This document shows positions 2,288 through 63,652 of a DNA stretch of 64,000 nt, piece after piece. The position numbers were made by a program, and so were the translations under genes. The notes beneath the pieces were generated by a model that worked only from the letters and a program-made list of their open reading frames with translations, did no database searches and was not told the origin of the DNA. Numbering within the stretch: position 1 is the first letter of the stretch; each line of letters starts with the position of its first letter. Where the stretch lies: assembly GCF_053078305.1 (NCBI RefSeq), contig NZ_CP166879.1. The stretch is one strand, 5' to 3'.

Positions 2288-3903
2288 ATGGCCAAAGCAC
2301 CAACTAAAAAAGCCAAAGCAAAGAAAGGCTTTGAAGAAACATTATGGGATACCGCAAACCAGCTTCGCGGTAGCGTTGAGTCCTCCGAATACAAGCACGT
2401 GGTGTTGAGCCTCGTATTCCTGAAATTCATCAGCGATAAGTTTGAAGCACGCCGCAAAAAAATGATTGCCGATGGGCAAGCAGACTTCCTTGAGATGGAA
2501 GTGTTCTACCAGCAGGACAACATTTTCTACCTGCCGGAAGAGGCGCGCTGGTCGTTTATCAAACAAAATGCCAAACAGGACGATATTGCGGTTCGTATTG
2601 ACACCGCCCTCTCGACCATTGAGAAACGTAACCCAACCCTGAAAGGCGCGCTGCCAGACAACTACTTCAGCCGTCAGAATCTGGAAACCAAAAAACTGGC
2701 GTCACTGATTGATACCATCGACAACATCGAAACGCTGGCACACGAAACTGACGTTGAAACGTTGTCGAAAGAAGACCTGGTCGGACGCGTTTACGAATAC
2801 TTCCTCGGTAAGTTTGCCGCAACCGAAGGCAAAGGCGGTGGAGAGTTCTACACGCCCAAATGTGTGGTCACGCTGTTAACTGAAATGCTCGAACCCTTCC
2901 AGGGCAAAATTTATGACCCGTGCTGCGGCTCGGCAGGGATGTTCGTGCAGTCGGTGAAGTTCGTCGAGAGCCATCAGGGTAAAAGCCGTGATATCGCGCT
3001 GTATGGTCAGGAACTGACACGACGTATAAACTGGCAAAAATGAACCTCGCCATTCGCGGTCTTTCAGCTAACCTCGGCGAACGACCGGCAGACACCTTCT
3101 TTAGCGACCAGCACCCGGACCTGAAAGCCGACTACATTCTGGCGAACCCGCCGTTCAACCTGAAAGACTGGCGTAATGAAGCCGAATTAACCAAAGACCC
3201 ACGTTTTTCCGGTTATCGTATGCCGCCAACCGGTAACGCCAACTACGGCTGGATTTTGCATATGCTCTCCAAGCTGTCGGCTAACGGTACAGCAGGTTTT
3301 GTGCTGGCAAACGGTTCGATGAGTTCTAACACCAGCGGTGAAGGCGAGATCCGTGCACAGATGATCGAAAATGATCTGATCGACTGCATGATTGCTCTGC
3401 CAGGTCAGTTGTTTTACACCACGCAGATCCCGGTGTGTTTATGGTTTATGACCAAATCGAAGGCTGCCGATCCGGCCAAAGGTTATCGTGATCGTCAGGG
3501 CGAGACGCTGTTTATTGATGCGCGTAACCTCGGCACCATGATTAGCCGCACAACTAAAGAATTAACGGCGGAAGATATTGCCACAATCGCCGATACCTAC
3601 CATGCCTGGCGCAGTACGCCAGAAGAACTGGCTGCACGGATTGCGCGTGGTGACAGCAAGCTGGAAAAATATGAAGACCAGGCAGGCTTCTGCAAAGTTG
3701 CGACCCTGCAAGATATTAAAGATAACGACTACGTGCTGACGCCGGGCCGCTATGTGGGTGCAGCCGAGCAGGAAGAAGACGGCGTGGCATTTGAGACCAA
3801 AATGCGTGAATTGTCGAAGACGTTGTTTGAGCAGATGAAGCAGGCGGAAGAACTGGATCGTGCGATTCGCCAGAATCTGGAGGCGCTGGGTTATGGGGAG
3901 TAA
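2288..3903 (+). pseudogene. hsdM: Type I R-M DNA methyltransferase subunit HsdM, interrupted by a frameshift around 3011-3043
   Basis: Two adjacent ORFs (2288-3043 and 3040-3903) carry the N-terminal HsdM region with the AdoMet motif DPCCGSAGMF and the catalytic NPPF motif respectively. The frame changes inside …[20 protein letters not shown]…, consistent with a single-nucleotide indel. This may be a real mutation or a sequencing error. Confidence 0.7.
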
Positions 3904-8300: not shown

Positions 8301-8651
8301 GATATTATCTATGATATTAAAACCGAAATGGGCACCTGGGCCGATTTAGGTATTGATATTGAAGAAAAAGCGTTTTTCGACATTCTTGCTCATATGCGCG
8401 ATAAATATCAGTTCACCTATGACGATGAAAAAATGCTGTCACTGGCAAAAGAGATGAAAAGCGTGGTTGACAACACATCGAAATATCCTGACTGGAGTAA
8501 ACGCGATGATATTAAAGCGAAACTGAAAGTTGAACTTATTCTGCTTCTACACAAGCATAAGTTCCCGCCAGTAGCGAATGATGATGTTTATATGGGTGTG
8601 CTGGCACAGGCAGAGAATTTTAAAGAACACCATATGAATGCTTTAAATTAA
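5388..8651 (+). CDS. hsdR: Type I R-M restriction subunit HsdR (SF2 helicase/nuclease)
   Basis: About 1087 aa with helicase motifs GATGCGKS (Walker A), DEAH (ICISDEAHRSQ), GFTGTP and LTGFDVP…ISRVNR. The ATG at 5388 has a GGAG ribosome-binding site 6 nt upstream; the ORF list used an upstream TTG. Confidence 0.75.
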   Translation: MSLSFSEAKLEQAIIELLQDQGYQHLIGDNVPRSSLDQVIIEDDLRHYLAARYQPDGITEEEIQRLIKQFTTLPASDLYESNKTFCRWLANGFLFKRDDRQQKDLYIELLDTRHLPAALRQIFDAEDVPLQQAAELPPSYMNPPLNRIKIVNQLKISGKDNQTRIPDGILYINGLPLVVFEFKSAVREQEASIGDAWKQLCKRYRRDIPQLFIYNTLCIISDGVNNRMGNLFAPYEYFYSWRKVTGNENREQDGIPSLHSMIQGLFHPVRLLDVIKNFICFPDKAKHEVKICCRYPQYYAARKLYYSIKQARKPFGSGKGGTYFGATGCGKSYTMQFLTRLLMKSVEFASPTIVLITDRTDLDDQLSAQMCNAKNYIGDDTIVPVTSREDLRNQLAGRNSGGVFLTTIHKFTEDTELLSERSNIICISDEAHRSQVNLDQKVIVDKESGKVRKTYGFAKYLHDSLPNATYVGFTGTPIDATLDVFGEVIDSYTMTESVQDEITVRIVYEGRAAKVILDSSKLEEVEKYYEECANAGTNEWQIDESKKATATMNAVLGDEDRLKALAEDFAKHYEKRVAEGSTVKGKAMFVCASREIAWDFYRQLKAIRPAWFEVKQAPDGVVLTEQEQKELPPSEMVKMVMTRGKDDDEALYDLLGTKEYRKELDKQFKNAKSNFKIAIVVDMWLTGFDVPELDTIYIDKPLQKHNLIQTISRVNRKLEGKSKGLVVDYIGIKSQMNQALAMYSRIDATNFEDIQQSVIEVKNHLDLLGQVFYEFDSRDYFSGEPQAQLSCLNRAAEFVLRTQKVERRFMGLVKRMKAAYDVCCGSEALSQTERDYIHYYLAVRSIVFKLTKGDAPDVTQMNARVREMIAEALKADGVEEIYFLGDKKAESIDIFDEDYLARINKIKLPATKIQLLQKLLEKAISDFKKVNQLQGINFTRRFQAIIDRYNERREDDVLNGEEFDTFSQEMTDIIYDIKTEMGTWADLGIDIEEKAFFDILAHMRDKYQFTYDDEKMLSLAKEMKSVVDNTSKYPDWSKRDDIKAKLKVELILLLHKHKFPPVANDDVYMGVLAQAENFKEHHMNALN

Positions 8652-8658
8652 TTATGAA

Positions 8659-8692
8659 GGCCGGATACACTTTGTTATCCGGCCATTCTGAA
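8659..8692 (+). terminator. Probable intrinsic terminator after hsdR
   Basis: Stem-loop GGCCGGATA…TATCCGGCC starts 8 nt after the hsdR stop and is followed by an A/T-rich tail. Confidence 0.45.
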
Positions 8693-8770
8693 TTAACGTT
8701 AATTTCTCTTCCAGATCTTTCCAGTAACGCTTTTATTATTTTCTATTTTTAGCTGGACTTTCCCTGTATT

Positions 8771-8790
8771 TACTGATGATATATCCAGGT
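8771..8790 (+). promoter_or_regulatory. Candidate LexA (SOS) box upstream of symE
   Basis: TACTGatgatatatcCAGgt fits the CTG-N10-CAG LexA consensus and lies about 80 bp upstream of the symE start. symE is known to be SOS-induced. Confidence 0.45.
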
Positions 8791-8794
8791 ATTT

Positions 8795-8871
8795 AGCGCG
8801 GTGCGGATGTGCGCCAACACACCCGCACCGCTAATCACAATCACTATTTATAGGGAATAGCAGTTATGACT
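8795..8871 (-). ncRNA. symR: Probable SymR antisense sRNA covering the symE ribosome-binding site and start codon (boundaries approximate)
   Basis: On the minus strand inside the 5' end of symE there is a sigma70-like promoter (TTCTGC-N17-TAGAAT) that would start transcription about 3-6 nt inside symE and read antisense across its RBS. This matches the known SymR arrangement. Confidence 0.4.
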
Positions 8872-9204
8872 GATACGCATTCTATTGCACAACCGTTCGA
8901 AGCAGAAGTCTCCCCGGCAAATAACCGTCAATTAACCGTGAGTTATGCGAGCCGCTACCCGGATTACAGCCGTATTCCCGCCATCACCCTGAAAGGTCAG
9001 TGGCTGGAAGCCGCCGGTTTTGCCACTGGCACGGCGGTAGATGTCAAAGTGATGGAAGGCTGTATTGTCCTCACCGCCCAACCACCCGCCATCGAAGAGA
9101 GCGAACTGATGCAGTCGCTGCGAAAGGTGTGCAAGCTATCGGTGCGTAAACAAAAGCAGGTGCAGGAATTTATTGGGGTGATTAGTAGCAAAACGCCACG
9201 CTAA
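8866..9204 (+). CDS. symE: SymE, SOS-induced type I toxin (AbrB-fold)
   Basis: 112-aa [55 protein letters not shown]… that I recognise as SymE (YjiW). Confidence 0.8.
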
Positions 9205-9212
9205 GTTTCTCT

Positions 9213-9238
9213 CCCCTTCCCCACACGGGAAGGGGAAT
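9213..9238. terminator. GC-rich hairpin between convergent symE and yjiS (possible bidirectional terminator)
   Basis: CCCCTTCCC-acac-GGGAAGGGG inverted repeat with a 9-bp stem between the two convergent stop codons. The U-tract is weak. Confidence 0.35.
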
Positions 9239-9246
9239 TTCCCCCC

Positions 9247-9411
9247 TCACTCCACATCCTCCCTGCGTAACCCGATATCCCTCAACCGTTCATCACTCAT
9301 CTGCTGTAACACCCGTCGGGCCTGCATTTGCCGCCGCCAACGCCTCACCGCCTGCCAGAGTTGTACAAGTCTGATAAACGGCGTTTTGGCTTTGTTTTCG
9401 TGAAATTCCAT
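9247..9411 (-). CDS. yjiS: DUF1127 small protein YjiS
   Basis: 54-aa minus-strand ORF below the ORF-track cutoff: MEFHENKAKTPFIRLVQLWQAVRRWRRQMQARRVLQQMSDERLRDIGLRREDVE. It matches YjiS as I remember it. Confidence 0.65.
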   Translation of the reverse strand: MEFHENKAKTPFIRLVQLWQAVRRWRRQMQARRVLQQMSDERLRDIGLRREDVE

Positions 9412-9587
9412 CTGCTGCCTCCTCATCTTTCAGAGGCTTCATCATCCGTCTTCTGGCAGTTCACAATACAGATGCAAATATTAGTTTTATTTAACATACA
9501 GACAGGTTAAAACAGCATCTGCATCCGGTTTTTTAGCCTCATCTGTACCGGTTTTTCTCTCTGTATGGTCCAAATAAGGAATACAGC

Positions 9588-25500: not shown

Positions 25501-27806
25501 ATGAGGATGTGAAATTTACCTTGCCAGCCTCCATGACCGGGAACTTCACGCTAAGTAGTGAAACCGCCCGCACCGATGCAAACGGTGATGCCGTGGTCAC
25601 ATTGCGAGGCACAAAAGCGGGTGAGTTTACAGTTACGGCGACGCTGACCAGAAATAATACCGTTGTTTATCAGCAAGTCACTTTTATTGGGGATACAAAC
25701 AGTGCGCAGCTCCAGCCGCTGACTGCCTCATTAAATTCCATTGTTGCGGGTAACAGTACGGGGAGTACCCTGACGGCAACGATCCTGGACGCTTACCAAA
25801 ATCCGCTTAAAGACCAGTTGGTCACTTTCCAGAGTAACGATGTCACTCTAAGCGGAACAGAAGTCACCACCAATACGCTGGGTCAGGCGACGGTAACAAT
25901 GACCAGCAATATTGCCGGGCAACATAACGTCGTGGTGAGCCGGAAAGCGCAAGCCTCCGATAATAAAACGTTTAGTTTATCAGTGCTCCCGGATGAAAGT
26001 TCGGCGAAGGTAATAAGTATAACCGGAGCCGAAAAAACGATAACGGTTGGCGAAAACATCACGCTACGGATACTCGTCCAGGACGCGTTTAACAATGTAA
26101 TCGCGGGTCAACGCGTCAGATTAAGTGCGCAGCCAACAACTAACATTACGATAGGCGATACGGCTTACACCGATAATAACGGTTATGCGTACGTTAACCT
26201 TCTCAGCACCCAACCTGGGGTTTATCAGGTGACGGCAACGCTGGACAATAACAGTAGTAGTAAGGTTGACGTGAATGTGGCAAATGGCAAACTCGAGTTA
26301 ACATCATCGAAACCAGAAACCACGGTCCATAATAGTGAGGGTATTACGCTGACCGCAACGGCGAGAAATGCGCGGGGTGAATTGATGCCAGGGCAAATTA
26401 TCACCTTTAGCGTAACGCCTGAAGGTGCAACGCTAAGCAATACAGGGGAAGTCCTTACTGACCAGTCAGGTCAGGCCAAAGTGACGCTGACCAGTGACAA
26501 AGTGAATGTCTATACCGTTACGGCCATAATGAGCAAAGATGTTCCCGTTCAGAGCCAGGTAACGGTTGCGGTTAAGGCAGATGCTAAAACGGCACATGTT
26601 GTGAGCGTCGTGGCTTCTCCTGACACCATCACCGCCGACGGCATCGATAGCAGCACCATCACTTCACGAGTAGAAGATGATTACGGATTCCCGGTTGAAG
26701 GTGTCGATGTTAGTTATACCTTAGACACCAAAGGTCGCCCGGTAGTTAATATTCCAACTACGCGTACCGATCAATCCGGGCAAGTCACGGCGACAATAAC
26801 CAGTACATTGGCAGAAACCTTAACAGTCAATGTGCAAGTTCCTGGTACAGCCAACCAATCCGCAGCTATTACCTTGATTGCCGGCACGGCGGATGAAAGT
26901 AAGTCAATTTTGAAATCCGACGTTAGCACTCTGATGGCTGACTACCAGCATAGCGCGAAACTTACGCTAACATTGCAAGACAAGTACGGTAACCCGATAG
27001 TGACGTCTGATCATCTGGAATTTGTCCAGTCAGGTCCCTTCGTGAACTTTCTCAAGTTGAGCGATATTGATTACAGCCAAAGAAATTATGGCGAGTACAC
27101 CGTGACTGTCACTGGCGGAAAAGAGGGAACAGCGACTCTCATTCCCATGCTGAACGGGGTTCATCAGGCAAACTTAAGCGTATCGCTGAATCTCATCCGC
27201 TCGATAAAAGAAATGTCCGGTCATGTCACTGCAAACAACCATACCTTCTCCACGGCTAAATTCCCGAGCGAAGGTTTTGCAGGAGCGTATTACACACTCA
27301 ACAATGATAACTTTGAAGCGGGTAAAACCGTTGATGATTATATGTTTTCAAGTTCACAGAGTTGGGTGTCGGTCGATGCTTCAGGTAAGGTTTCTTTCGC
27401 AAATATCGGCGATCAAACGTCAGTCACAATAAGCGCTGTTCCCCGACAAGGAGGTACAACCTACCAGACCTTAATTAAGCTGAAAGGCTGGTGGGTGAAT
27501 AATGGAAATCATACCAATATCTGGCTAGCTGCCAATGCGCTCTGTCATGCTAAAAATGATGGATATAATCTTCCAGGCATCACACATTTGACGTCTGGCG
27601 AAAACAAACGCACGCAGGGATCACTGTATGGTGAATGGGGGAACGTTGGAGCGTTTTCCAGTAATTCGCAATTTACACAAGGAGCTTACTGGACAAGTGA
27701 ATCTGATGATTACAATCGGCACTACTATGTGCAGATGCTAACCGGTATGACTGGAAGCGACGCTGATTCCAGCCCCCAACTGACCGCCTGCCGTAAATCA
27801 CTATAA
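22566..27806 (+). CDS. Inverse-autotransporter (intimin/invasin-family) adhesin with LysM, beta-barrel, many Ig-like repeats and a C-terminal lectin-like domain
   Basis: 1746 aa. N-terminal LysM-like segment (YTLGALESAQSVADRFGISLEELRRLNQF), an intimin/invasin-type barrel region, then about a dozen roughly 100-aa Big_1-like repeats, and a Cys-containing C-terminal domain. Confidence 0.7.
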   Translation: MASTNAHQIKNNDQNSLCGLGDKIRRLTAGVCLFTQFFFPVMATAQNVVHAKPQTTVSSAPPLLENNTVPYTLGALESAQSVADRFGISLEELRRLNQFRTFARGFDNVRQGEELDVPATTSQKSHEQQNAVPPANGENTLENQIASTSQRVGTLLSQDMNSEQASGMARGWASSEASGAMTDWLNNFGTAKISLGVDEDFSLKNSQFDFLHPWYDTPDYLLFSQHTLHRTDDRTQINTGLGWRHFTSSWMSGINLFFDHDLSRYHSRAGLGAEYWRDYLKLSSNAYIGLTGWRSAPELDNDFEARPANGWDLRAEGWLPAWPQLGGKLVYEQYYGDEVALFDKNDRQSNPHAITAGLNYTPFPLLTLSAEQRQGKQGENDTRFAVDLTWQPSSSMQKQLNPDEVAGRRSLAGSRYDLIDRNNNIVLEYRKKELIRLSLLDPVKGKSGEIKPLVSSLQTKYALKGYNIEAAALEAAGGKVSTSGKDITVTLPGYRFTNTPETDNTWSIDVTAEDVKGNLSRHEQSMVVIQAPTLSQKDSLLSVNPLTVAADKKSTTTLTVTAHDSDGTPVPGLALQTRSEGVQDITLSDWTDNGDGSYTQILTAGTTSGSVTLTPQINGESAVKESIVVNIVPVVSSRDHSSITIDNVSYYAGDDIKVRVELKDDSNQPVAYQKEELVKAVTVENSKPGTTIVWHEEQPGVYAANYPAHKQGTALRAQLSLHNWNAPLQSHIYNIEANQNKARVATLSATNNDVYADKKTFNTLTINVTDESDNPLTNHQVTFKNEKGSAEFVEPPQQNTDAYGVATINMVSQVAEENTISATLPNGFSQRIIAKFVSDSSTPKFKQLVADPDTIIAGNSQGSTLTAIVTDFHNNPLKDMKVNFVAPGGSQLDNTTATTDQSGIVRVHLTSSKAGSYSVDASLEVDKNIHQSVTITVVPNREQSVMTLNAGSGSAIANNTNIVTLTASVKDVYGHPLPDEDVKFTLPASMTGNFTLSSETARTDANGDAVVTLRGTKAGEFTVTATLTRNNTVVYQQVTFIGDTNSAQLQPLTASLNSIVAGNSTGSTLTATILDAYQNPLKDQLVTFQSNDVTLSGTEVTTNTLGQATVTMTSNIAGQHNVVVSRKAQASDNKTFSLSVLPDESSAKVISITGAEKTITVGENITLRILVQDAFNNVIAGQRVRLSAQPTTNITIGDTAYTDNNGYAYVNLLSTQPGVYQVTATLDNNSSSKVDVNVANGKLELTSSKPETTVHNSEGITLTATARNARGELMPGQIITFSVTPEGATLSNTGEVLTDQSGQAKVTLTSDKVNVYTVTAIMSKDVPVQSQVTVAVKADAKTAHVVSVVASPDTITADGIDSSTITSRVEDDYGFPVEGVDVSYTLDTKGRPVVNIPTTRTDQSGQVTATITSTLAETLTVNVQVPGTANQSAAITLIAGTADESKSILKSDVSTLMADYQHSAKLTLTLQDKYGNPIVTSDHLEFVQSGPFVNFLKLSDIDYSQRNYGEYTVTVTGGKEGTATLIPMLNGVHQANLSVSLNLIRSIKEMSGHVTANNHTFSTAKFPSEGFAGAYYTLNNDNFEAGKTVDDYMFSSSQSWVSVDASGKVSFANIGDQTSVTISAVPRQGGTTYQTLIKLKGWWVNNGNHTNIWLAANALCHAKNDGYNLPGITHLTSGENKRTQGSLYGEWGNVGAFSSNSQFTQGAYWTSESDDYNRHYYVQMLTGMTGSDADSSPQLTACRKSL

Positions 27807-46260: not shown

Positions 46261-46379
46261 GCTGCTTTCCTTTAAAAAAACTATTTCTAAATCGACATGG
46301 GCAGTCGTTCTGTACACTTTGTTTTGTCAACGAGTTTGACTGCCAACACTGCACAGTTTTCCCCCAAAAGATGAAACAT

Positions 46380-46693
46380 TTGGGGCCATTTTGACTCATA
46401 GAGGAAAGCATCGCGCACAAACTTTTTCAGTTTATTTGTTGGCTTAATATTCTATTGTTATCTTTATTTATAGATTTTTATATTGCATGAGGTGGTTTTT
46501 GGAGAGAAGAATGAGGAAGATGCGTCGAGCCACAGAAACGTTAGCTTTACATATAGCGGAGGTGATGTGAAATTAATTTACAAGAGAAATAATTTACATA
46601 TCAAACAGTTAGATGGTTTTTGTCGTTTTTTAAAATTTTTATGCTTGAGAAAAAATACGTAACTTATTTATGATATGGACAGTTTGGCCCCAA
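46380..46693. promoter_or_regulatory. fimS: fimS invertible phase-variation switch (314 bp), apparently in the OFF orientation
   Basis: Bounded by 9-bp inverted repeats TTGGGGCCA (46380-46388) and TGGCCCCAA (46685-46693). The only good sigma70 promoter inside (TTGAGA-N18-TATGAT, 46645-46674) lies at the fimE-proximal end and points toward fimE, away from fimA. Confidence 0.7.
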
Positions 46694-46740
46694 TTGTCTT
46701 GTATTTATTTGTTTTTTAACTTTATTATCAATAAGTTAAA

Positions 46741-57998: not shown

Positions 57999-58285
57999 GG
58001 TGCGAAGGCCGGACTCGAACATTTAATTAAACAACTGTATTTAAATAGTTTTTGTATTTAAAAATGAATTGATGCCCCTTTTTGTGCCCCCATTACCAAA
58101 ATAACAACCTAACCTTGTACTAAAAAAGAGATTTTTCAATGTAGGCACTCTGGTTCGGCTACGCTTACCGGAGACGAACCTGAACATAAGAAATCTGAGA
58201 TAACTTCATAGTAATCATCTTTAACACTTTTGACCAATAATATCTATCATAAAGGCAGAGAAATTAATCTCTGCCTTTATTAAGG

Positions 58286-59154
58286 TCACATAAAAAGATT
58301 ATTAATTAGAGTACACTGTTGACATCCATTAATATCTACAGCTTTTAAAAAATCTGTGTTACTAATCAAAACAGCATTACTAACACCTGAAAACTGCAGC
58401 TGTGCATACATACCTAAGATAGATTTTTTTTCGTAATACTGAGATCTTCCTGTATAACTTTCACCAGTATTAGAACTTATAAATCGCCTCGTTCTTTCTT
58501 GTATCAATAAATTATTTTTAAGGAAGCTCAAAATATCTTGCTGCAATTGTTTGTTTTTGTTATGAAAATAACATAACAATTGATCCTCTAAGGTACCAAG
58601 CTGAGTGTTAACGTCATGAAAAATATACCCCCCCATTCACTCCCATTAAACTCAATAATACTTCCATTGGAGAGTTGAGTAGTATCTTCTAAACCTATCT
58701 CATTTTTAATCTCTGTTATTCTGGCATCAATGCCAAGTTCATCAGCATCAAAAAAATATAAAAATCTATATGCAATTTCTATACTGAAGTCATCTGTACC
58801 AGAAAGTTCTTTATACATAGTGACTAACTCAGCCCTTTCACGACTTCTGCCATCACCATTTAGATTATGTATAAAAATTAAGTTCCCGTTATGATAGAAA
58901 CAAACAGAAGGTAGTTTTGGCCCGTTTGGCTGAAAGCCAAGTTTTTTATCTGGAATTCTTACTTGACTTAGTTCTTTTTCAAAGCGTTTATCAAACGGTG
59001 GAGGTAATTGACCAATTTTAAGATCTTGAAGTTGGAATCCATTAACTAAAAGAATTCTGCTAAGAAAAGCGACGTCATGCTGTCCTTCACAAAAGGCAAC
59101 TATGACTCTATTATAAGATACACTCACAATTTTAGCCTCTAATATCAAGATCAA
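58286..59154 (-). pseudogene. Toprim-like (OLD/AriB-like) gene split by a frameshift at a G7 tract
   Basis: ORFs 58588-59154 and 58286-58636 overlap across a C7/G7 homopolymer (58628-58634). The N-terminus has VAFCEGQHD and a later FFDADELG (Glu … DxD), suggestive of a Toprim fold. Fusing the frames gives an approximately 300-aa protein. Confidence 0.45.
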
Positions 59155-61369
59155 TATTTTTTATCAAATAGCCAAATCTTTCGCCATCAGCCCTTTTCAC
59201 TACTACTTTATCGTCAACTTTGCTTAACTGAAATCCAGTAATGCAATCATTATTATAATCATTATTTAAAAAAGCTCTGATACATTCACCCGAATGTGAC
59301 GTAAGGAACACTTGCACATTGAAACGTTCTGCAAGTTGTTGCGTAAATTTAGTAAACTCCAATAGTAAACTATAATGAATCGCAGTTTCAAATTCATCAA
59401 TAAAAAGTACACCGTTACGACATGCAGCAAAAGATAAAGCTATATAAAAGATGCGCTGAATACCCTCTCCATAAGAAGTAAGATCGAAACTTCTGTTAAA
59501 ATCATATGCTGATTCTACGATAAACCTTTTGAGCTCCATGTCTTCAGTAAATCTGACATCTTTTATCGTTGGCTCAATTTTATTCATGAATTCAATAACA
59601 AGGCCGATAGCGGATTGTATATTTAAATCATCTGATTCTGAGTCAGTTACAGACGTTAAATTTGCACCTATACTTTTGTTATAATCAGTGAGCAAATCGT
59701 CTATATCGTAGAAATAAGGGCTTTTAAATGACGATGAACACAAATGCGAAACTTGATCAGCGTTCCTTCTCATACGTTCATGGATAAAAGTATGGACTGT
59801 GTTATTTCTAAATTCTCCATCAATGCTAGACTTTAAGCTATAAGATGCTATATAGTCATCTTGTTTATCAATTGAAGAATCATCATATTTAATCATTTCA
59901 ACAGTAACATTACTATCATCAAATACTCCTGACAAGATTATTTTATCTTGGAAAAGAGCATTTAGCAATGTTGGACTCAAAGTACTGATTTTATTTTTTT
60001 GCCTAATAAGATTAAAATGCGATGAAATATCATTACGCTGCGTCAATAAGTAAATTGCTTCAAGCAATGAAGTTTTTCCAGCATTATTAAAGCCAGCAAT
60101 GATATTAATCTTATTGAAATTATCCAATGAGAAGTTTTTAAAGAATTTATATTTTTTGATATAAATGGATTTAAAATGTTTTTTTACTCCATACTCAAAA
60201 TTAGTTGTATAGTTTCCTCCTTCGATATTTATAGCCATCTGCTTTGGCATTATTTGTGTTAGTTTTTCTTTTGCATCATCTAATAAGCGCAAATCCTCTT
60301 GGTTTATGAGGCTACTATATAGATTTAAATCCTTTAAGGCGTCTTCAAGCTTGCTTAAAGCATTTTTATAGTTTTGCTGATTTACTGAACCGCTCGCAGC
60401 TAATCCTCTTGCAAGGCTACGTTCATCCTCCATTACCTTCAAGGCTTTTTCATTATTGATGAACAAAGCAAGATCTCGTATCTCAAGAGATTTAGTAATT
60501 ATAGGTTCTAGCTCAACGTATTCACCATTACTTTCCTCTTCAATATCATCTTCTAGCTCATTTTTCTCAAGGTATTCATCTGTTTTAGAGATCCACGAAA
60601 AAAGCCTATCAAGATTCACTAAATTTCTAGCATAATAACCGTTATCACTCCAGTCTAACCAAGATTTAATTACAGGCTTTTTGATTATTTCTTCAAAAAT
60701 ACCAAACATACTTGGTTCGAATTGCTCACCATACTCACTTGTTTTATATAAGGAAATTAGATTATAAACTCTAAGCATAGAGCGAAGACGCGTTTTAGAA
60801 ATACCGAGCGAACTAACTAGCTCATCTTCTTTTTCAACATACTCATCTCGAGTTTTGTCTTCATATGGTTTTAAAAAATCATAAAGCAGTTTGGACTGAT
60901 TATATGTTGACCACTTTTTATTACCACTTATATGCTTTAATCCCATTACAATCAGATGTTTTTCAACATCTTGATTATTATGGATTTCGAAAGGAACACT
61001 TCTAAAAATAGATGGATCTAGTTTTCCAATATCAAACCCCTTTTCATATGCTTCTTGCAATGCTTTCAGCGCCGTTACACGACGATTTCCCTCAAGGACT
61101 AAATAATTGTTATCTCCTAAATCCTTTACTTGAATAACATCAACATCTAAGTATCCATTAGATTTAAAACTTGCTATTAGATCTTTGATATTCTCTTGTC
61201 TATTTCCTTCTATAAAAAAGCGAGTCCTACGCTGAATTGTTGGATCTAGCATGTCCTTTTCTGAGACTGGCTTGTGCTGGTCATTGTCAACAAAACGGTA
61301 GTTATTAGGATCTAGAAATAAATTTTTTAAATTTTTGCTAATGCGCGGGCGAATTTGCTCGACATTCAT
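59132..61369 (-). CDS. Fusion of an N-terminal ParB/Srx-like domain with a C-terminal ABC-type (SMC/RecF/OLD-like) ATPase
   Basis: 745 aa. ParB box LVLEGNRRVTALKAL near the N-terminus; Walker A GFNNAGKTS, Walker B LFIDEFE and H-loop LTSHS in the C-terminal half. Low GC. Confidence 0.6.
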   Translation of the reverse strand: MNVEQIRPRISKNLKNLFLDPNNYRFVDNDQHKPVSEKDMLDPTIQRRTRFFIEGNRQENIKDLIASFKSNGYLDVDVIQVKDLGDNNYLVLEGNRRVTALKALQEAYEKGFDIGKLDPSIFRSVPFEIHNNQDVEKHLIVMGLKHISGNKKWSTYNQSKLLYDFLKPYEDKTRDEYVEKEDELVSSLGISKTRLRSMLRVYNLISLYKTSEYGEQFEPSMFGIFEEIIKKPVIKSWLDWSDNGYYARNLVNLDRLFSWISKTDEYLEKNELEDDIEEESNGEYVELEPIITKSLEIRDLALFINNEKALKVMEDERSLARGLAASGSVNQQNYKNALSKLEDALKDLNLYSSLINQEDLRLLDDAKEKLTQIMPKQMAINIEGGNYTTNFEYGVKKHFKSIYIKKYKFFKNFSLDNFNKINIIAGFNNAGKTSLLEAIYLLTQRNDISSHFNLIRQKNKISTLSPTLLNALFQDKIILSGVFDDSNVTVEMIKYDDSSIDKQDDYIASYSLKSSIDGEFRNNTVHTFIHERMRRNADQVSHLCSSSFKSPYFYDIDDLLTDYNKSIGANLTSVTDSESDDLNIQSAIGLVIEFMNKIEPTIKDVRFTEDMELKRFIVESAYDFNRSFDLTSYGEGIQRIFYIALSFAACRNGVLFIDEFETAIHYSLLLEFTKFTQQLAERFNVQVFLTSHSGECIRAFLNNDYNNDCITGFQLSKVDDKVVVKRADGERFGYLIKNIDLDIRG

Positions 61370-61630
61370 ATGTCACCTCAATGGTGTAGGAACTATACAA
61401 TGCAACTTTACTTGATACCTCAGCAATCAACAACTTCATGTTTTTGAAACTAAGCGCGCGCAGCCCCGCACGCCTGCCCGCTTCGCTTAACAGACTGGTT
61501 TTCATGCACCTCATAAATCGTCTCAGAAGCCACCAAACAAGGGTTTTCTCGTCAAAAATGGTGCATAAGACTCATGCGTTTTCATGCGCCATAGACATGC
61601 ACTCATTCGCTCTCATGCCAGCCAGGAAAA

Positions 61631-61662
61631 GGGGATAAAAAATCCCGGTACTGGACCGGGAT
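61631..61662 (-). terminator. Intrinsic terminator after the ogr/delta gene
   Basis: The minus strand reads ATCCCGGTCCAGTACCGGGAT followed by TTTTTAT, 21 nt after the stop. Confidence 0.55.
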
Positions 61663-61682
61663 TACGTGGGCGTTCTTTCTAA

Positions 61683-61964
61683 TCAGACAGGAATCTGCTG
61701 ACGGCTTGACAGTTTTGACGCGGAGCCATAGCGATTAAGTGTTTGCTGTTGTTTTTCCGGGGATTGTGCTTTGTCTGATAGCTGTTCATTGCGTCGGGGT
61801 TTCATGATTATCTTATCCACACTCTCCAGTGCCGTAAATGTGCAGGAACATTCCAGATTCTGGCACTGATACCACGAGCGTTTAACTGACGGAGCTTCAT
61901 AGGCTGCTGTTCTGGCGTGTGCAACTGTACCGCATTCCGGACATTTAAGTGCCATTAATATCAC
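61683..61964 (-). CDS. Ogr/Delta-family zinc-finger late-gene activator
   Basis: 93 aa with a CPECG…HARTA…YQCQNLECSCTF four-cysteine motif, like P2 Ogr and P4 Delta. Confidence 0.8.
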   Translation of the reverse strand: MILMALKCPECGTVAHARTAAYEAPSVKRSWYQCQNLECSCTFTALESVDKIIMKPRRNEQLSDKAQSPEKQQQTLNRYGSASKLSSRQQIPV

Positions 61965-62512
61965 TCCTGTATATCGTTAATGTCATTCAGGCGTTGCTGA
62001 AAACGCAGATGTTGTGCCGGGGTGTAAGAGCCCTGGCAATCACGAATCATCCCGGGGTCAGGCATCAAACCGGATTCATCCAGGATCTCACGATAATCCC
62101 CGGCAATTTCAGGCGGTGTTATTGTCAGCTGGCGAACCAGAGCACTGCGTAATATACGGGACGCAACGTCAACCCCTCCGCGCCCCTTCAGGAACGGAGC
62201 CAGTGCAGATGTCAGGGCTGCCCCATTCGCCTGCATAAAATTGCTGAGAGCGGCTTCTGTGCAGGCTTCCATCAGTAAATGCTGCGAGTAAATGCATTCG
62301 CGCGCAGCACAGTTAATTTGCCATTTCAGCACATCCAGACGTTCCCGCAGTAATTCGAGCTGTCGGGCATAATCTGCTGGTTTTTCTGTGGCAGCGAGGA
62401 GAGATGCTATCTGTTGTTCAACGGCTTTTCGGCTCTCACTATGTCCGGCCCACAGAATACGGGCATTCCGAAAACTGGTAAGTGCCTGGTCAGGCGTGCC
62501 TCGGGCCGTCAT
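61961..62512 (-). CDS. Psu-like (polarity suppression / capsid decoration) protein, tentative
   Basis: 183 aa, helical composition, size close to P4 Psu (about 190 aa). Operon position is between the sid-like and ogr-like genes. Confidence 0.5.
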   Translation of the reverse strand: MTARGTPDQALTSFRNARILWAGHSESRKAVEQQIASLLAATEKPADYARQLELLRERLDVLKWQINCAARECIYSQHLLMEACTEAALSNFMQANGAALTSALAPFLKGRGGVDVASRILRSALVRQLTITPPEIAGDYREILDESGLMPDPGMIRDCQGSYTPAQHLRFQQRLNDINDIQE

Positions 62513-63252
62513 ACTGCTTTCTCCTTCTCAGCAAGTTCCTGACGAACCTTAATTTTATGCATAGCTGCCGGAGAGAGTTGATTACTGAAATCCAGACGCG
62601 CCGCATAATCCGGGGCAATTCCCGCCAGTTTAAACACCGGGTCCTGTTCAGGCATCGCATCGTTAGCCAGAGCCGGTCTGGTGATATGTTTATGAATAAA
62701 GTCTTTCAGCACTGTGTCCGGGTCATTAACTGAATTCACCACACCCACAACGGCACTGGCTTCCCGGCCCATTGTGGATTTAAGCAGGCTCAGCGTCTGA
62801 ATAAGCGCTTTTCCATGCGATTGCATAAAATCTTCCCAGATTTGTTTTGCGCGAATATCCACAAGAATGTTATGCGCGTGGATATACTTTCCGGCTAATT
62901 CCGCAGCTTTCTGCGGCAAAAGTGCATTTTCGCTTTCCTGAGCCGCCAGCAGCTCATCAAAATCCTCAAGCGTTTCTCGTCCCAGCGCAATTTCCGTGCG
63001 CAGTTTTTTCATTTCCTTTGAAACCACGCCCTGACTTTCACGAAACAGCGTGCGCCACTCCTCATTCAGTGTGTTCGTCGTGGCTTCCATCTCAGCGCGA
63101 CGCTGGCGGATTGTCGCAATATTATCCGCTGCCGCTTTCTGCTGACGACGTGCTTCAAGCCATGCGTTTCTGGCTGTGTTCATGGTTTCCAGTGCCCGCT
63201 GCGTTACAGCCGGAAAAGTGGAAAGGTTGTTATTCACTGCGGTGTTGTTCAT
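62509..63252 (-). CDS. Sid-like capsid size-determination protein, tentative
   Basis: 247 aa (P4 Sid is about 244 aa), first gene of the operon, with an AGGAG ribosome-binding site before the ATG at 63252 and TGT-N12-ACA dyads upstream. Confidence 0.5.
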   Translation of the reverse strand: MNNTAVNNNLSTFPAVTQRALETMNTARNAWLEARRQQKAAADNIATIRQRRAEMEATTNTLNEEWRTLFRESQGVVSKEMKKLRTEIALGRETLEDFDELLAAQESENALLPQKAAELAGKYIHAHNILVDIRAKQIWEDFMQSHGKALIQTLSLLKSTMGREASAVVGVVNSVNDPDTVLKDFIHKHITRPALANDAMPEQDPVFKLAGIAPDYAARLDFSNQLSPAAMHKIKVRQELAEKEKAV

Positions 63253-63276
63253 GGCTTCTCCTGTCGGGTTGGTTCG

Positions 63277-63332
63277 TTACGTCAATTGTGTCGTGGCTGA
63301 CACAAGCACACTATCGGTGCTCAGTGTGTGGT
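63277..63332 (-). promoter_or_regulatory. Two TGT-N12-ACA dyads (candidate Ogr/Delta activator sites) upstream of sid
   Basis: TTGTGTCGTGGCTGACACAA (63276-63295) and TGTGTGGTGGCTGGCACA (63315-63332), about 38 bp apart. Confidence 0.45.
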
Positions 63333-63430
63333 GGCTGGCACAACGGGCGCTTGCGGTTATTCAGACGTGGCTATGAAAGCCAGCCAGATAAAAATGCCCT
63401 CAGTTTCAGTCTGCTTTATGTCCCTGATGC

Positions 63431-63619
63431 GGTGGAACAGGTGAAACATGTGTTACAGCTTTGTTTTATAAAGCACTTATATACACTGCACCGGTGGAAC
63501 ATCGCGGGTAACAAGGTGGAACAGCGGATTGGCTGGCGTTACATCTGTTCCACCTCACTATTTCAGAAGGTGGAACAGGTTCAGCCCTGTAAAATACGGT
63601 TGTTCCACCTGTTTCACCT
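63431..63619. repeat. Iteron cluster: about 8 copies of GGTGGAACA/TGTTCCACC in both orientations (P4 crr/ori-like)
   Basis: Perfect copies at 63431, 63493, 63515, 63546 (rc), 63569 and 63601 (rc), plus variants GGTGAAACA (63441) and TGTTTCACC (63611). P4 crr/ori carry TGTTCACC repeats bound by the alpha protein. Confidence 0.6.
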
Positions 63620-63652
63620 GTTACCCTTAATAAATAAGACTCACGCAAAGCC

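Follow-up and report, generated by a model that had tools for sequence, protein, structure and literature searches.

Does the DNA that follows hsdR in this stretch carry a working symE/symR module with its antisense RNA and its SOS control in place, or is it an ordinary small gene with chance consensus matches around it? The stretch analysed here, which we call the window, comprises 64,000 nucleotides of contig NZ_CP166879.1. Having compared the locus with the dissected K-12 module and with related loci from other genera, we conclude with a probability of roughly 0.93 that it is a functional copy of the known symE/symR (symER) module of the Escherichia coli immigration control region. Every sequence part of the module is present, intact and conserved, and from orthology with K-12 we infer that the module is expressed in the window strain, that LexA binds its operator, where symE transcription starts and that SymE is toxic. 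The module is well studied and already known, and it stands in its usual place with all of its parts intact; mildly new are a hypervariable loop in SymR, a junction within the C-terminal tail of SymE, the position of the module as a hinge between cassettes, and a frameshift in hsdM. The value of the analysis lies mainly in correct annotation, as the RefSeq annotation tables of the close relatives that we examined list neither the symR gene nor the LexA operator, both of which are placed here to the base.

symE, the SymR antisense RNA and the activity of SymE

By direct reading of the sequence from 8400 to 9700, together with a listing of open reading frames, and by covariance-model search and folding, we placed the toxin gene and its antisense RNA as follows.

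8866-9204, plus strand: symE coding sequence from the open reading frame list, 112 amino acids, ATG start, intact
8852-8856, plus strand: symE Shine-Dalgarno sequence AGGGA, read from the sequence, 9 nt before the ATG
8795-8871, minus strand: symR, 77-nt cis-antisense RNA, placed by the Rfam RF01809 covariance model
8833-8871, minus strand: SymR hairpin 1, with its loop at 8849-8855
8798-8831, minus strand: SymR hairpin 2, the terminator, from the SymR fold

A first-pass annotation of this DNA had described SymE as intact and as lying directly after hsdR, and both descriptions proved correct. The symE frame is uninterrupted over 112 codons and its product exceeds the cutoffs of both family profiles by a wide margin, scoring 76.7 bits (cutoff 29) over positions 1-54 of the 54 in Pfam PF08845 (SymE_toxin) and 219.3 bits (cutoff 132) over positions 1-110 of the 113 in NCBIfam NF010128 (SymE equivalog), while hsdR, a gene of 1087 codons, stops at 8651 and is followed after a 214-bp gap by symE as the next gene. 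The protein is 92% identical to K-12 SymE over 109 amino acids. A 595-nt segment spanning symE is 100% identical to E. coli strain A16 and finds a match in 2881 of 5426 complete E. coli genomes; in strains A16 and TUM13936 the product is annotated as RefSeq WP_001672350.1. The K-12 symE/symR locus (yjiW/ryjC; Kawano, Aravind and Storz 2007, PMC1891008) occupies the same slot after a type I hsd cluster, between yjiA and yjiS, in the same orientation, with identical symR hexamers, the same SymR start and a LexA box in the same place.

An antisense RNA covering the symE ribosome-binding site in the manner of SymR had also been proposed, and the search with RF01809 bore this out: positions 1-77 of the model, its full length, match with 94.3 bits (gathering score 61; E = 1.7e-18). 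The RNA lies opposite the symE 5' UTR with its Shine-Dalgarno sequence and reaches 6 nt into the reading frame, and its Rfam-defined 5' end at 8871 lies 8 nt beyond the -10 hexamer of its promoter and 3 nt beyond the ATG. The Shine-Dalgarno sequence faces the loop and the 5' stem arm of hairpin 1. Compared with K-12 SymR, five of the 77 positions differ; four of these fall in the hairpin-1 loop, where the stretch ahead of the Shine-Dalgarno sequence reads CCTGGAG in K-12 and TATAGGG in the window, and the fifth replaces an A.C mismatch of K-12 hairpin 2 by a G-C pair. Further Rfam hits near symER (Ref66, snoRNAs, Clostridiales-2) were rejected as noise, with E values from 0.04 to 1 and scores far below their gathering scores.

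The two hairpins of SymR fold with a minimum free energy of -40.1 kcal/mol (z = -5.9), and the fold of the 91-nt symE mRNA leader is poorer, at -30.5 kcal/mol. For a comparative view, one genome per species was scanned with a pattern made only of SymR hairpin 1 and the first symE codons, which returned 39 loci outside the window, in Citrobacter, Klebsiella, Raoultella, Enterobacter, Kluyvera, Leclercia, Kosakonia, Pantoea, Pseudocitrobacter, Escherichia whittamii and others. Among 37 distinct sequences (alignment A3), 95.1% of cells were paired in the two-hairpin structure, against 24-50% in controls whose pairing partners had been slid by 1-3 columns. Compensatory changes were found at 11 pairs, 10 of them in hairpin 2, which lies outside the pattern that found the loci. 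Moreover, the alignment holds 229 G.U cells against 15 A.C cells, an excess which argues that it is SymR, and not the mRNA strand, whose fold has been maintained. This covariation demonstrates, at the level of comparative sequence evidence, that selection acts on the SymR fold.

By the mechanism that these parts and the K-12 work suggest, LexA bound at 8771-8790 would repress transcription of symE, and, since the operator overlaps a weak symE promoter, we propose that symE is transcribed only after RecA-stimulated LexA cleavage. The stable 77-nt SymR would be made constitutively from a promoter within symE codons 5-14. It is complementary without a mismatch to the entire symE 5' UTR together with the ribosome-binding site and start codon, and would mainly block translation, with a modest drop in symE mRNA; the SymE protein itself would be degraded by Lon. 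SymE is a small protein of the AbrB/MazE fold that would arrest growth upon accumulation. In K-12, repression of SymE by LexA, SymR and Lon is additive (PMC1891008; review PMC4147584); SymR is a stable RNA whose excess still amounts to about 10-fold after induction, and symE mRNA is lowered about 3-fold (PMC1891008).

Other toxin systems share parts of this layout. The tisB/istR-1 and dinQ/agrB pairs likewise combine a LexA-repressed toxin gene with a small RNA that holds down its translation (PMC4147584). Their toxins, however, are small hydrophobic membrane peptides, whereas SymE is a soluble AbrB-fold protein of 112 amino acids, and istR-1 and agrB are encoded divergently or trans-like with limited pairing, whereas SymR is a fully complementary and unusually stable cis-antisense RNA. 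In hok/sok, too, the antisense RNA lies over the translation initiation region of the toxin, but there the antisense RNA is labile and the mRNA stable, while symER combines a stable RNA with a Lon-labile protein (PMC1891008).

What SymE does once made is contested, and with it the label of toxin or endoribonuclease. The original work described RNase-like effects (PMC1891008); Thompson et al. 2022, as summarised in PMC11894785, reported no RNase activity but non-specific DNA binding and nucleoid compaction. On the latter findings symER may not be a functional toxin-antitoxin pair at all: SymE would be a nucleoid-associated DNA-binding protein, induced in the SOS response and limited in dose by SymR, that is toxic only as an artefact of overexpression. 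The MazE/AbrB DNA-binding fold of SymE (Pfam PF08845) agrees with such a role, as does the stability and roughly tenfold surplus of SymR, which is unlike a classical labile antitoxin, although overproduced SymE does inhibit growth, SymR does prevent this inhibition (PMC1891008), and the databases still carry the product name "endoribonuclease SymE". We hold this alternative to be evenly balanced between right and wrong. The sequence cannot decide between an RNase and a DNA-binding activity, and caution is warranted for the database product name.

Defence cassettes on either side of symER

As a copy of the known module in the immigration control region, symER has to be read together with its neighbours, for which three further features were placed.

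8745-9183: conserved symER core block of about 440 bp, from an alignment of six E. coli haplotypes
8656-8688, plus strand: stem-loop after the hsdR stop (GGCCGGATA...TATCCGGCC), fold of -21.7 kcal/mol, z = -6.0
9212-9236, both strands: G+C-rich hairpin between the convergent genes symE and yjiS, from folding

The gene order in the window is yjiA, brnTA, an Mrr-type endonuclease gene, hsdM, hsdS, hsdR, symE, yjiS (on the opposite strand), yjiR, rpn and mdtM; in K-12 it is yjiA, mrr, hsdR, hsdM, hsdS, symE, mcrB, mcrC, pseudogenes, yjiS and yjiR. The upstream neighbour of symE is therefore the hsdR of a type I system of M-S-R order in the window and the hsdS of EcoKI in K-12, and the downstream neighbour is yjiS in the window and mcrBC in K-12. 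We also considered whether symE is inverted relative to K-12, which the K-12 annotation rules out by giving the same position and orientation. The first-pass annotation had taken the neighbouring restriction genes to be rearranged, and this part of it has to be corrected. Because the HsdM of the window haplotype is only 24% identical to EcoKI HsdM, the hsd genes belong to another type I family with M-S-R order and are not rearranged K-12 genes; mcrBC is absent from the window arrangement. Its companion statement, that the module is kept while its neighbours change, stands, since six haplotypes share the common core and carry different cassettes around it.

Genomes of K-12 type align only to positions 8735-9183 of the window (query positions 84-532). 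To the left of the core the six E. coli haplotypes carry an EcoKI-type, an EcoAI-type or an M-S-R-type cassette, and to the right mcrBC, GmrSD with DUF262, or none; six of the nine possible left-right combinations occur, and every cassette type is found with more than one partner. Judged from these haplotypes, symER is a constant hinge between two independently assorting defence cassettes. It offers a stable landmark where defence genes swap as cassettes, and helps to parse other haplotypes of the immigration control region. The whole 12-kb arrangement of the window is present in about 700 complete E. coli genomes, the best match over this length being TUM13936 at 98.2%, and none is identical.

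Since the homology breaks off on the right within the last codons of symE, the tail of SymE depends on the right haplotype. In the window it ends in ..ISSKTPR, the last six to seven residues being unlike the ..IAGKQKVA of K-12; the ..ISSKTPR tail is specific to haplotypes in which yjiS directly follows symE, and ..IAGKQKVA is found elsewhere. Beyond this junction, in the six-haplotype alignment, the hairpin at 9212-9236 is part of a right-flank haplotype common to strain LCP30S3_I3. It folds with -20.2 kcal/mol on the plus strand and -22.6 kcal/mol on the minus strand (z = -3.8 and -3.0), and on these folding energies it is probably a two-way terminator for symE and yjiS. On the other side, the stem-loop at 8656-8688 lies in the haplotype-specific intergenic flank, which is not common to K-12. 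Its computed fold makes it a possible hsdR terminator, one that has no T-run and was left uncalled by a terminator scan of 8500-9600.

Within the core block, variation is concentrated in the seven-nucleotide loop of SymR hairpin 1 (8849-8855), a hot spot that lies just 5' of the symE Shine-Dalgarno sequence and extends into it. Among six E. coli alleles, six of its seven positions vary, compared with 43 of 432 elsewhere in the core (Fisher p = 9e-6), and the 40 sequences formed by the window and the 39 other loci display 21 different hairpin-1 loops. Despite this variation, a purine-rich, G-containing Shine-Dalgarno motif is retained in every allele. The variable loop could possibly serve allele-specific recognition between SymR and symE, or the tuning of translation.

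Both the neighbourhood and the loop invite the idea that symER is more than a passenger, being coupled to the adjacent defence cassettes, or using the SymR loop to define allele-specific recognition classes, or both. In E. coli the module adjoins the 3' end of three type I families that are unrelated to one another, and the arrangement recurs in Citrobacter, Klebsiella, Kluyvera, Raoultella and Pseudocitrobacter; type I subunit genes are present in the fetched flanks of 15 of the 39 other-species loci. If there were coupling, SOS-induced SymE might coat or condense DNA and so limit self-restriction when repair creates unmodified sites, or symER might instead guard the cassettes beside it or make the cell addicted to them; loops that define recognition classes would be comparable to plasmid incompatibility groups. 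Neither the coupling nor the recognition-class idea has specific support in the evidence, and we consider both improbable.

Some further observations concern the neighbouring DNA. The hsdM gene (2288-3903) is split into open reading frames at 2288-3043 and 3040-3903, with the break at about 3017/3018; relative to strain A16 it carries a 4-bp deletion (CAGC), leaving 1616 nt in place of the intact 1620 nt of A16 and TUM13936. The frameshift could be a sequencing error; if it is real, the type I system beside symE can neither modify nor restrict. By collinearity with TUM13936, whose numbering keeps step with that of the window here, a brnT/brnA type II toxin-antitoxin pair lies at 285-861 on the minus strand, between yjiA and the Mrr-type endonuclease gene, forming a second toxin-antitoxin module of this defence island that is absent from the K-12 arrangement. 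Farther away, a 322-bp segment between fimE and fimA (46376-46697) is inverted relative to strain A16; it is the fimS phase-variation switch, set in its other orientation. From 58020 to 64000 the window has no match to the syntenic region of A16 beyond an integrase-adjacent point, and this part is probably a different integrated element.

The LexA box, the two promoters and their conservation

Whether the symE/symR copy of the window is also under SOS control depends on a short segment upstream of symE, and production of SymR on a promoter inside the gene. These control elements were placed as follows.

8771-8790: predicted LexA operator, the 20-mer TACTGATGATATATCCAGGT, orthologue of the K-12 yjiW box, with its CTG-N10-CAG core at 8773-8788
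8754-8759, plus strand: putative symE promoter -35 element TGGACT, from cross-genus conservation
8777-8783, plus strand: putative symE -10 element TGATAT/GATATA, inside the LexA box
8879-8884, minus strand: symR promoter -10 element TAGAAT, identical to K-12
8902-8907, minus strand: symR promoter -35 element TTCTGC, identical to K-12

The LexA-type box that had been noticed upstream of the gene is the orthologue of the K-12 yjiW/symE operator with one substitution, and lies 95 nt upstream of the symE ATG. The published K-12 yjiW LexA box is CTGATGATATATACAG (PMC2585105), and the K-12 counterpart of the window box is TACTGATGATATATACAGGT, whose core is the listed yjiW site; the window differs from it by a single A-to-C change at 8785 (CCAG in place of ACAG). 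For K-12 yjiW, both PMC1891008 and PMC6590174 credit LexA binding and induction by damage to Fernandez De Henestrosa et al. 2000. We scored the box with a symmetrised weight matrix derived from the 16 published boxes in Table 4 of PMC3009722. The 20-mer is the best site in the 64 kb, where a random sequence of that length would be expected to hold 0.41 such sites, and it agrees with the consensus TACTG(TA)5CAGTA at 14 of 20 positions, with both triplets intact. The second-best site of the matrix, TATTGGGGATACAAACAGTG at 25685-25704 (12.4 bits), lies inside the iatD coding region by synteny with A16 and is probably a chance match.

The substitution raises the question of whether symER persists here with its SOS control decayed, the CCAG change and the deviant left half CTGA having lowered the affinity for LexA so that SymR and Lon are left as the only restraints on SymE. 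The score does fall, by 1.1 bits, from 14.0 bits in K-12 to 12.9 in the window, which is below all 16 training boxes (the weakest has 13.8), and some Citrobacter-type loci have poorer boxes still, of 1.2-3.4 bits. However, a C precedes CAG in eight of the 16 bona fide boxes, both triplets, CTG and CAG, are preserved at their proper spacing, and the position of the box is conserved across genera. Moreover, of the 2675 complete E. coli genomes that match a 49-mer covering the box (8767-8815), 1045 carry it exactly, and the same C allele is found in E. whittamii. By this distribution the A-to-C variant is a common natural E. coli allele and not a lesion, and decay of the SOS control is in our view very unlikely.

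We observed that a motif, cTGGAcTT, is kept in nearly all of 39 aligned sequences (the window and 38 other-species loci), 12-13 nt upstream of the LexA box; in the window 17-18 nt separate its TGGACT from the A/T-rich centre of the box downstream. If this motif is taken as the symE -35 element, the -10 element falls inside the LexA box and the start site near 8789-8795. The symE promoter would then be weak, TGGACT-N17/18-TGATAT/GATATA with poor hexamer matches, and the LexA box would cover its -10 element and the likely start. In other loci the putative symE -10 element reads TAGATT or TAAATT.

For the antisense RNA, the sigma70-like promoter TTCTGC-N17-TAGAAT that had been read inside the 5' end of symE is indeed there, at 8907-8879 on the minus strand, across codons 5-14 and with a spacer of exactly 17 nt, and the suggested comparison with K-12 symER found the symR promoter region identical base for base. 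From the ATG through both hexamers the window departs from K-12 only by one silent base in the third codon (8874). In K-12, changing the -10 region from CATTCT to CACTCC abolished SymR (PMC1891008), and the mutated site corresponds to 8878-8883 of the window. As bare motifs, these elements are at chance level. The symR promoter matches the consensus at two of six positions in the -35 and five of six in the -10 hexamer, and 896 equally good sites exist in the window; a consensus scan of 8500-9600 for promoters and terminators called no symR promoter, no symE promoter and no terminator; and the window holds 15 copies of CTG-N10-CAG where 10.8 ± 3.4 would be expected. The case for symER therefore rests on homology and conservation, each of which is strong.

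That the antisense promoter and the CTG-N10-CAG box are mere consensus coincidences in an ordinary small gene, as those counts and the silent scan taken by themselves would allow, is already refuted by the full-length RF01809 match, by identity to the dissected K-12 locus, by the compensatory covariation of SymR and by the fixed positions of these elements in 36-39 of about 40 loci, including other genera, and we give it next to no credence. The elements scored across loci (the symR -10 and -35 hexamers, the LexA core and TGGACT) all lie outside the search pattern. At an unchanged offset, 39 of 40 sequences have TAGAAT or TACAAT as the symR -10 hexamer, though the encoded residues switch between His-Ser and Asp-Cys, and the -35 hexamer is TTCTGG or TTCTGC in 36 of 40. 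Similarly, in 36 of the 39 aligned sequences CTG-N10-CAG precedes the ATG by 88-100 nt.

The symER loci of the other genomes (L009-L047) split into two sequence types. One begins with MTDTHSIA.., has the symR -10 hexamer TAGAAT and usually follows directly on a type I restriction-modification cluster. The other begins with MT.VDCIA.., has the hexamer TACAAT and a stronger LexA box (14-22 bits), and mostly lies in fetched flanks free of restriction-modification genes. Two of the contigs, L044 and L045, are labelled as Bacillota metagenome-assembled genomes; they carry an E. coli-like symER together with hsd genes, and because of this they are probably mis-binned.
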